From an uncultured Candidatus Sumerlaeota bacterium (GTDB taxonomy: Bacteria; CAYMEV01): DNA of 64,000 nt. This document shows positions 1 through 2,305 of the stretch, in pieces. How positions within the stretch are numbered: position 1 is the stretch's first letter; every line of letters begins with the position of its first letter. The notes beneath the pieces are model-generated. The model did not search any database. It saw only the letters and a list, made by a program, of their open reading frames with translations, and was not told the DNA's origin. The translations under genes were made by a program, and so were the position numbers. Where the stretch lies: NCBI GenBank assembly GCA_964389675.1, contig CAYMEV010000012.1, forward strand, positions 39,329-103,328, written 5' to 3'.

Positions 1-2305
1 CATCATCGCTTGGAGGCCAGTTTATTACATTCATCCTTATGGCCTTTCTCTGAGATTCATCTATATAGGGCGGGTTTGATGGCTCTGCATATCTTTCTTC
101 CTTGGGCCAGAACGGAGGAGCAATAAGCGTTCCTCTCATGTCCCAGGTGAAATTCCTGTTGAAGCCGGAGTTATTTGAGCCGAAAGTTCCATGCGCTCCA
201 TAGAGCTTCTCAATGTAGCCTCCCCTGAGCCTGACAGGGCCGTTGCCTGTTGCAGAGCCTCCCCAGTGGCTGTTTGAATACTCATAGACCTCTATCATGC
301 CCTGAGATGACATTACAAAGGCATCGACATAAAACTCCCTCAGGCTTCCGGTCATATTGTTGGGATTATATAGTATATCGCCTGTTGCGGTGTATATGCC
401 CAGCATATTCTGATGGAGGAATGTCCCGTCGCCTGCATCCATAAAAAGGCTGTCGCGGAAATTATAAAATCCGTCCTCATCAGGAGTATAGCCGTACCTG
501 TAGATGCCGGCAGCGGAATTCAATCCCTCATGCGGGCTGTCGTAAAACTCAGGAGCGCTGGTCTGCCCGTAATTTGAATATAATACATTGCCATCAAGGT
601 AGATATCCCCTTCAGAAGTGACATTCCACTGGGAATCGGATGTATAGTATATATCACCCATCGTATCTTCCCTTGGCTTCAGATTGCCTGATACAATTCC
701 GCTGAGGCCCGGGCCAGTTCCGACTGCTGTAGCGTAGCCCAAATTTCCGTTTACAAAGAGCATCCCATTCGGGGTGCCATTATAGACATTCCATCTTACA
801 GACCCCCAGCCGCTGGAGCTTGTGGGCCTGCTCCTTACATAGGTCTTCTGCTCCTTGTAGGAAATTCCGCCTAAACTGTAGTCGTCATCCTGGATCAGGA
901 CTTGAGTGATCGTATTATTGGCCTTTATCTCAACCATCTGGAAACCATTATCAAGCTTGACTGTATCGTTGGTATTAACAGAACCAGCGCTGTGTATGGG
1001 GCTTGAGGGCAGATTATTATGATCATTATCCTGCCATGGTGCAAGGAGTGATGAGTGATCCGGCCTTGTGCTTACAATGCTGAAGTGGACATAATCTGCA
1101 GCTGTGGGTACATAAATGCCCCCGACAACCTTGCCTGCGCTGGTATTAACCGTTGTCTGCGTGAGCGAATCCCATGCTGAGTTCCATGTCGTGGCCTTTG
1201 TATGCATGGATTTAAGCTTCTGGTCTATGGTATCTTCAGGGAAGTCAACAGAATCACTATATGCAACTGGCATGTAATGATAATCTTCAGGATTTCCCTT
1301 TACTTTCGGGTAATCATCATCAAAATAGCCTGATGTGAGACCACCTAGAAAGCTGGAGTATAGCTGGCCATAATGACCGGAAGAATAAGCATAGGGCAGA
1401 TAACCCTGAGGAATGCTATCCTGGTAGTCTGAATTAAAATAGTATATATTTGCGCATTTAAGAGTATTGTTGAAAACAGGATTGCCGTAAATATTAAAAT
1501 GGTCATTCGTATGGACAGGCCCCTTGAACTTGGTATTGTCAGTAAACCAGATTGCACTCACCCATTTGGGGTTGTCAAAATCCCTGTTCCTCTGCTTTTC
1601 CGTGCAGAGTACCCATAGGTTGAGAATCCTGTTGTTTAAGGGCTGTCTGAGATATCCCTCCTCAATTATATTGTACTGGCTTGCATATCTTCCATCTGAC
1701 TCTTCAGTGCCCGCCATGGTTATTATCCTGTAGGGTATATAGGCTGTGAATGTAAAGCCCTCCCCATCCTGGAACTTGATCCTCCCGGGCAGGCCGAAAT
1801 CAAAATCATTGGCAAAATGCGGCCATTCATCAGCTATCTCAGTCATTACGGTATCATCGTCATTAATAAGGACAGGCCTGTTTCCCACTACAAAATATGT
1901 ATCAAGGTCAGTAACCGCCTTTTCATCAAATCCTTCGACAGATATCTGTACCGGGTTGTTCATGGGATCACCTATGCCGTTAAAGCATGTATCTACAAAT
2001 TCAATATACCTTGTTACAAATAATTCAGGGTTTTTAGCAGGATCGGGGAAAATGCCTGTTCCTGGATTATCTGAGTTCCATTCTGAAATATACAGTACAA
2101 GATTATCCTTTATGGCCTGCCTGTATTGCCACAATGCTGAAGATACTGCGCTCTCAGCCCCTATTTTAACCCTGTTCAGCTCCTCCTGGTGGGATGTCTG
2201 TATTATCTGGCTTGTTGTCAGGTAATAGAAGGTCATTGAGAATAACAGCAGAACAAAAAGCACCATGAGGACAAGTATCAGGATTCCTCCTCTTTCTCTA
2301 TCCAT
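1..2305 (-). CDS. Large secreted protein with PilX-like N-terminal domain (type IV pilus-associated), 5' partial: N-terminal 768 codons in window, C-terminus beyond the edge
   Basis: ATG at 2305..2303 preceded by AAAGGAGGAT Shine-Dalgarno (rc of 2309-2318). N-terminus MDRERGGILILVLMVLFVLLLFSMTFYY matches the PilX_N pattern (basic-R-G then hydrophobic helix). Frame checked open to position 1 by hand at both ends; no in-window stop, which is why the ORF track omits it. Body is Gly/Asn/Tyr/Asp-rich. Confidence 0.5.
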   Translation of the reverse strand, partial: MDRERGGILILVLMVLFVLLLFSMTFYYLTTSQIIQTSHQEELNRVKIGAESAVSSALWQYRQAIKDNLVLYISEWNSDNPGTGIFPDPAKNPELFVTRYIEFVDTCFNGIGDPMNNPVQISVEGFDEKAVTDLDTYFVVGNRPVLINDDDTVMTEIADEWPHFANDFDFGLPGRIKFQDGEGFTFTAYIPYRIITMAGTEESDGRYASQYNIIEEGYLRQPLNNRILNLWVLCTEKQRNRDFDNPKWVSAIWFTDNTKFKGPVHTNDHFNIYGNPVFNNTLKCANIYYFNSDYQDSIPQGYLPYAYSSGHYGQLYSSFLGGLTSGYFDDDYPKVKGNPEDYHYMPVAYSDSVDFPEDTIDQKLKSMHTKATTWNSAWDSLTQTTVNTSAGKVVGGIYVPTAADYVHFSIVSTRPDHSSLLAPWQDNDHNNLPSSPIHSAGSVNTNDTVKLDNGFQMVEIKANNTITQVLIQDDDYSLGGISYKEQKTYVRSRPTSSSGWGSVRWNVYNGTPNGMLFVNGNLGYATAVGTGPGLSGIVSGNLKPREDTMGDIYYTSDSQWNVTSEGDIYLDGNVLYSNYGQTSAPEFYDSPHEGLNSAAGIYRYGYTPDEDGFYNFRDSLFMDAGDGTFLHQNMLGIYTATGDILYNPNNMTGSLREFYVDAFVMSSQGMIEVYEYSNSHWGGSATGNGPVRLRGGYIEKLYGAHGTFGSNNSGFNRNFTWDMRGTLIAPPFWPKEERYAEPSNPPYIDESQRKAIRMNVINWPPSDD

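Follow-up and report, generated by a model that had tools for sequence, protein, structure and literature searches.

A gene at the edge of a Candidatus Sumerlaeota sequence window probably encodes a ComZ-type minor pilin with a predicted β-solenoid cap

We analyzed a 64,000-nucleotide stretch (hereafter the window) of contig CAYMEV010000012.1 (positions 39,329 to 103,328, forward strand; assembly GCA_964389675.1) from an uncultured Candidatus Sumerlaeota bacterium, and focused on the minus-strand gene that starts at ATG 2305 and runs to the first base of the window. An initial annotation, made from the sequence alone, had described its product as a giant secreted protein with a PilX-like N-terminus. 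We found that the gene is real, yet its product is not giant, and that this product is probably a minor (pseudo)pilin of the PilX/GspK class and of the ComZ type, the cap subunit of a type IVa pilus. Its predicted architecture consists of a basic leader ending in Gly, an α1 helix without Glu5, a small pilin-like domain, and an ice-binding-protein-like β-solenoid of ~500 residues. This assignment builds on the following observations: the open reading frame (ORF) itself, the pattern of the leader, the family to which the protein belongs, the operons of its relatives, fold similarity, and the conservation of a promoter motif.

As initially annotated, the frame is open on the minus strand across 768 codons from ATG 2305 to window base 1, and the strong ribosome-binding site (RBS) reported there, AAAGGAGG, is present 5 nt before the ATG. 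No alternative in-frame start codon was found between the upstream stop and ATG 2305, and the RBS core GGAG is invariant across an alignment of five orthologous upstream regions. The product begins with MDRERGGILILVLMVLFVLLLF... and contains 8.8% Gly, 7.9% Asn, 7.8% Ser, 7.4% Asp, 7.2% Thr, and 6.6% Tyr, in line with the Gly/Asn/Tyr/Asp-rich body described earlier. Only short spurious ORFs had been listed at 1-2305, because the gene has no stop inside the window. The database protein P0001 (from an NCBI contig) is 782 amino acids (aa) long and 100% identical to the window protein over all 768 residues; what falls outside the window is just the C-terminal 14 residues (ELTTLMNTGINELY) plus the stop codon, and the C-terminus of P0001 reads ...NWPPSDDELTTLMNTGINELY. 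The five closer homologues, or orthologues, are 751 to 847 aa long. Because the identical full-length protein has 782 aa, the product is not giant, and the implied size was an artefact of the window edge. The initial wording, larger than 768 aa, is thus literally correct, but a giant protein continuing past the 5' edge is not what was found. Of the two signs that had been named as speaking against the initial annotation, an in-frame stop just beyond the window does exist, whereas an N-terminus matching a different family was not observed. The gene has a GC content of 44-48%, near the 38-47% of the adjoining 10 kb, which does not suggest horizontal acquisition.

The N-terminus can be read as MDRERG|GILILVLMVLFVLLLFSMTFYYL and displays the features of a class III signal, namely a basic leader, a Gly, and ~20 hydrophobic residues. 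A Gly occupies the alignment column of Gly6 in 77 of 79 family sequences; the leader before it is short and mostly basic (median 9 aa), and ~20 hydrophobic residues follow it in these 77 members. The leader pattern can be written as ...[KRQE][RKQ]G plus a hydrophobic stretch. Glu does not occur at +5 in these 77 sequences (0/77); the window protein has Leu there, or Val if it is cleaved after the second Gly. A study of cyanobacterial pili reported that the absence of Glu5 marks the capping subunit PilX (bioRxiv 10.64898/2026.02.12.705559). Judged from the sequence, the conserved leader Gly combined with the lack of Glu5 represents the signature of a PilX/GspK cap subunit, and the prepilin peptidase may cleave the leader at the conserved Gly. 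The PilX-type N-terminal anchor proposed initially was therefore borne out as regards leader, hydrophobic stretch, and missing Glu5, but not by the PilX_N profile applied to the window protein alone.

On sequence grounds, the gene is assigned to the DUF4900 superfamily. The precomputed annotation of P0001 includes PF16241. When 1.84 billion representatives were searched with a family profile built from seven sequences (six close homologues plus P0007), 925 clusters (50% identity) scored E<=1e-3, of which 381 reached E<=1e-10. Superfamily members are mostly 550-750 aa long, and their C-terminal ~110 residues are conserved best; among the 150 representatives listed, most scored highest in the block corresponding to aa 633-735. 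All 73 sampled members matched DUF4900, and 16 of the 73 matched PilX_N at E<=0.01. P0007 (JGI, 545 aa), which bears the name 'Tfp pilus assembly protein PilX', can be aligned with the window protein over its entire length and carries both PF16241 and PF14341, the latter (PilX_N) at 28.8 bits, above the cut-off of 25.5. Named superfamily members include Omnitrophica. An NCBIfam search of the window protein gave no match, and no description of DUF4900 function was found in a literature search. The window protein falls into a close ~780-aa subfamily of six proteins (41-100% identity; three clusters at 50% identity), which has extra or longer loops compared with its DUF4900 relatives. This subfamily is scarce, being represented by one locus in a scan of species-representative genomes and by two short fragments in a metagenome scan. 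A contig look-up for P0001 itself and a scan of genome contigs with it gave no match.

Distant relatives occupy the PilX slot of minor-pilin operons. At locus L003, genes for a GspH/N_methyl protein (186 aa) and two N_methyl proteins (148 aa and 289 aa) precede that for the DUF4900/PilX_N protein, which is followed by a 67-aa ORF, a layout that reproduces the fimU-pilV-pilW-pilX order. At L004/L005, from an Omnitrophica metagenome-assembled genome, the order is a 168-aa N_methyl protein, a 188-aa protein, and then DUF4900. At L006, pilin genes stand on both sides of the DUF4900 gene, followed by pilM, pilO, and a secretin gene; the full cluster there (9057-18062) comprises five pilin-like genes, pilM, pilO, a T2SSB-like gene, and the secretin gene besides DUF4900, and would make a good reference locus for the family. 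Linkage to FimU/PilV/PilW-like minor pilins was thus found at L003-L006, but not in the window or at L001, L002, L008, and L009, the orthologous loci with usable flanks. Adjacent minor pilin or PilY1 genes, for which the initial annotation had proposed a check, occur neither here nor at those four loci.

We then considered the predicted structure. An AlphaFold2 run with 12 sequences reached a pLDDT of 59.5 and was replaced by a model based on the 79 family sequences (pLDDT 85.1, pTM 0.85). This model shows a helix at residues 4-79, a second helix at 93-107, strands at 119-227, a β-rich body up to ~720, and further strands at 735-755. The body is predicted to form a triangular, ice-binding-protein-like β-solenoid, in support of the β-helical body envisaged at first. 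In ComZ of Thermus thermophilus (PDB 6QVI), an ice-binding-protein-like solenoid is placed between the last two strands of a GspK-like pilin domain (PMC6561018). The strands 735-739 and 747-755 that follow the solenoid in our model, as read from the secondary-structure string only, are compatible with such an insertion topology. In the fold comparison, the top match was a tip pilin, GspK and XcpX were also matched, and similarity to the ice-binding family fold appeared at 10-14% sequence identity. Foldseek against viral structures gave no match, and the window protein shows no PilY1/Neisseria PilC β-propeller domain, with or without vWA.

Upstream of the gene, we found a sigma-54 promoter. The motif TGGCAY-N5-TTGCW has two matches in the window, where 0.18 would be expected. 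Its core, GGCAT-N5-TTGC, is invariant in the alignment of the five orthologous upstream regions, the flanks of which have diverged. This core lies 33-44 nt before the start in 7/7 loci of the ~780-aa subfamily and is absent from 5/5 loci of operon-embedded relatives. A weak sigma-70-like site (9/12 positions) overlaps the promoter region. The window encodes a sigma-54 enhancer-binding response regulator (18,412-19,752) and a histidine kinase, so the organism uses sigma-54. The second match, a perfect sigma-54 promoter, TGGCACACATTTTGCA, is located at 18239-18254 (−), just downstream of this kinase/activator pair (19742-21487 and 18412-19752). Behind it lies a small Cys-rich ORF (17861-18199, −) whose probable start, ATG 18199, comes after AAGGAGG; it contains two repeats of the form GLCATCxN..(T)C....(W/L)HCE(D/E) and has no Pfam match.

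Two PilT/PilU-family ATPases are encoded at 34,674-38,217, passing TIGR01420 with 441 and 394 bits (cut-off 319). The first is a canonical 355-aa PilT (34674-35741, −; 441 bits), the start of which is overlapped by 8 nt by the end of a HEAT-PilT fusion (35734-38217, −). The fusion is 827 aa long, with HEAT repeats at ~aa 140-440 and the PilT/PilU ATPase at aa 470-809 (394 bits). With this pair, the organism has type IVa pilus motors. From it, together with the supposed size of a tip or surface adhesin, the initial annotation had deduced an elaborate type IV pilus apparatus, which goes too far: the pair lies ~32 kb from the gene, unlinked to it, and speaks for motors only. Housekeeping genes, the two-component/sigma-54 activator pair, and a che cluster lie in between.

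Taking these data together, we propose the following mode of action, in which we infer the cleavage, tip location, partners, and ligand of the window protein. The N-terminal helix would insert the protein into the inner membrane, and prepilin peptidase would remove the leader. With FimU/PilV/PilW-like minor pilins encoded elsewhere, the protein may then form the priming complex of a type IVa pilus. Because Glu5 is absent, it could serve as the first, tip-most subunit only. As the tip-most subunit, it would cap the fiber with its solenoid, whose surface may be presented to the target of the pilus (a substrate, polysaccharide, or DNA). Transcription from the conserved sigma-54 promoter would restrict production of the cap to times when an enhancer-binding activator is switched on. 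We regard the larger loops, the lack of linked pilin genes, and the conserved sigma-54 promoter as three modest peculiarities of the ~780-aa subfamily. We may speculate, tentatively and with considerable doubt, that this subfamily provides a signal-switched alternative cap. In that case, an unlinked, enlarged solenoid-PilX would displace the cap encoded in the operon, or compete with it, and thereby re-program what the pilus binds (e.g., DNA as opposed to a surface or polysaccharide) in a lineage that lacks PilY1.

Several results weigh against a pilus cap. The residue after the conserved Gly is again Gly, an oddity of the ~780-aa subfamily seen in only 6/77 family members, and Gly at +1 is unusual for a pilin. 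PilX_N (PF14341) remained below its cut-off for the window protein (11.4 bits versus 25.5; E 0.32), the sub-threshold match at aa 5-54 covering profile positions 1-50 of 51, and so did DUF4900 (PF16241; 26.5 bits versus 29.4; E 8.3e-6). No pilin gene lies within ~10 kb at L008, L001, and L002 or in the 7 kb upstream at L009, and no class III pilin ORF with the classical G-F-x-L-x-E start occurs anywhere in the 64-kb window. In the part of the genome covered here, a prepilin peptidase, the assembly ATPase, a secretin, and partner minor pilins were likewise not encountered. Foldseek against the PDB gave no match, and phmmer and two family profiles run against all PDB sequences matched neither ComZ nor a solved pilin (E<=10).

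Some of these results would suit the main rival explanation, a bitopic envelope protein that is pilin-like at its N-terminus only. Here, an uncleaved signal-anchor would hold a periplasmic or surface β-solenoid that works independently of any pilus, for example as a polysaccharide-binding or -modifying module or as an adhesin. The second Gly, the PilX_N score, and a monocistronic gene with no pilin gene nearby at the four orthologous loci with usable flanks would all be natural for such a protein, as would its own sigma-54 promoter, a pattern not present in operon-embedded relatives. We nevertheless consider this explanation rather unlikely. Proteins encoded in the PilX slot of pilin operons can be aligned with the window protein over the whole length, the superfamily consistently keeps the leader Gly and lacks Glu5, and the fold comparison leads to a tip pilin, with GspK and XcpX among the matches. 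In addition, PilX genes that are not linked to pilin genes are known to co-occur with PilV partners (bioRxiv 10.64898/2026.02.12.705559).

In a close variant of the type IVa cap, the protein would be the tip pseudopilin equivalent to GspK, either in a type II secretion-like system or in a competence pseudopilus. The leader without Glu5 is of the GspK type, the L003 operon of one relative starts with a GspH-family protein, and ComZ acts in DNA uptake while being dispensable for piliation (PMC6561018). On the other hand, the Pfam search matched DUF4900 and PilX_N only, without any GspK family of type II secretion, and relatives adjoin pilM, pilO, and the secretin gene, a type IVa layout. The two PilT/PilU retraction ATPases in the window also argue against a pseudopilus, as type II secretion systems, to our knowledge, do without them, and at 86 kDa we judge the cap to be large for a pseudopilus that is short and periplasmic. 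We therefore regard this variant as improbable. That the protein is of the ice-binding or antifreeze type (DUF3494) is very unlikely, as Pfam gave no match to an ice-binding family, the likeness is confined to the fold level, the same likeness in ComZ and cyanobacterial PilX was judged uninformative on function (PMC6561018; bioRxiv 10.64898/2026.02.12.705559), and neither the pilin-type N-terminus nor the operons of relatives would be explained.

Table 1. Features of the DUF4900 gene and its upstream region in window coordinates
Feature	Position	Strand	Evidence
Coding sequence, codons 1-768 of 782	1..2305	-	Open frame; identical 782-aa P0001
Ribosome-binding site AAAGGAGG	2311..2318	-	Sequence read; GGAG invariant in five orthologues
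Sigma-54 (-24/-12) promoter TGGCAT-ATATT-TTGCA, 34 nt before ATG	2340..2355	-	Motif count; orthologue conservation
Leader MDRERG (aa 1-6), short, charged, ending in the family-conserved Gly; putative prepilin-peptidase site	2288..2305	-	77/79 Gly conservation
Predicted N-terminal helix, aa 7-79; first ~22 residues hydrophobic (α1N-like anchor); IGAESA motif	2069..2287	-	AlphaFold2 helix 4-79; weak PilX_N
Predicted pilin-like globular part, ~aa 80-230: helix 93-107, then antiparallel strands	1616..2068	-	
DUF4900 signature, aa 210-281 (...AIWFT..T.F.GPVHTNDHFNI...), at the solenoid start	1463..1678	-	Pfam PF16241
Predicted β-solenoid body, ~aa 233-720; long loops specific to the ~780-aa subfamily	146..1609	-	
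Best-conserved superfamily block, aa 633-735 (NMLG...D.F.M...V..Y...G.V.LRGGY...LYG..G...GF.R.F.WD.R...PP.WP)	101..409	-	Profile search; invariant columns

In the window, the gene is divergent from the genes for a 113-aa bitopic protein and ProRS (proS). The 113-aa protein (2558-2899, +) has a charged C-terminal tail and no family match, and L001 has a homologue in the corresponding place (30% identity, E 8e-18). At the syntenic loci L001 and L008, convergent genes lie downstream, one for a 108-aa membrane protein and one for a ~380-aa protein resembling a lipoprotein. We asked if the small membrane proteins flanking the gene are mutual paralogues, and rejected the idea (E 15). L009 is syntenic upstream of the orthologue, and L002 presents a different neighborhood, also without pilins. 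The nearest relatives of ProRS share 75-81% identity with it, followed by those of Calditrichota, Caldithrix abyssi, and KSB1 at ~64-65%. Going by this single protein, the uncultured source lineage can be placed, loosely, as probably within or close to this part of the FCB group.

Further genes in the window deserve mention. A chemosensory cluster at 21584-28270 (−) encodes CheD, a CheC/CheX-like protein, CheA, a CheY-like receiver, CheW, and a methyl-accepting chemotaxis protein; it could be linked to either a pilus or a flagellum. The next gene on the same strand encodes a GAF-GGDEF diguanylate cyclase. In a single 914-aa ORF at 45974-48718 (−), cytidylate kinase (aa 3-217) is joined to seven S1 domains in a ribosomal protein S1-like array. 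The 391-aa protein encoded at 38525-39700 (+) strongly matches TMEM43 (PF07787, E 3.6e-82), a family named after Transmembrane protein 43. The ~1000-aa ORF at 14814-17828 (+) carries a PPDK_N domain (PEP-utilizing, ATP-binding) and a weak N-terminal receiver match; its true start is uncertain because the TTG start overlaps a 231-aa ORF on the opposite strand.

The assignment offers a defensible annotation for a hypothetical protein. It also ties DUF4900, an uncharacterized group of ~925 clusters at 50% identity, to the class of tip subunits formed by ComZ and solenoid-PilX. If it is true, bulky solenoid caps would be a widespread alternative to PilY1 outside Proteobacteria, beyond Thermus and cyanobacteria. 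When such a cap is produced can be tested concretely by way of the conserved sigma-54 promoter.

How does the window protein compare with known proteins? It shares with other DUF4900 proteins the ...WFT..T.F.GPVHTN... signature. The typical members whose context we checked are encoded in pilin operons, whereas the ~780-aa subfamily stands alone with a sigma-54 promoter. With PilX and GspK/XcpX it has in common the leader type without Glu5 and a weak PilX_N match that spans the whole profile, and the genes of its relatives come after FimU-, PilV-, and PilW-like genes. It differs from PilX in scoring below the PilX_N cut-off and in being several times larger than proteobacterial PilX. The proteobacterial homologues have been called smaller in the cyanobacterial work as well (bioRxiv 10.64898/2026.02.12.705559). 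GspK carries an α-helical insertion at a different point of the fold (PMC6561018), whereas the window protein has the predicted solenoid.

A pilin fold that is broken up by a large ice-binding-like β-solenoid has been described for all cyanobacterial PilX, where the solenoid was proposed as a substitute for the PilY1 plug and where PilX and PilV co-occur even if unlinked (bioRxiv 10.64898/2026.02.12.705559). By that description, the window protein resembles PilX1-3 of Synechocystis and the HpsA-like PilX-EPS as a probable cap without Glu5, with a predicted solenoid, encoded by an unlinked gene, and as a possible replacement of PilY1 in the role of tip plug or adhesin. The lineage is different, in that our protein comes from an uncultured bacterium with a ProRS that shares ~64% identity with its Calditrichota and KSB1 counterparts.

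ComZ was placed at the pilus tip on steric grounds (PMC6561018). Its sequence has no detectable similarity to the window protein, the 6qvi chain has 518 residues compared with 782 aa and longer loops here, and its gene adjoins pilA1-pilA3, whereas the window gene stands alone. We know of no counterpart of the sigma-54 promoter for comZ. Nevertheless, the two proteins share the same pair of fold similarities, to pilins and to ice-binding proteins, and both were missed as classical pilins by sequence motifs (PMC6561018). As far as the model goes, they also share the N-terminal hydrophobic helix, a GspK-like pilin domain (putative in the window protein), and the large triangular ice-binding-protein-like β-solenoid.

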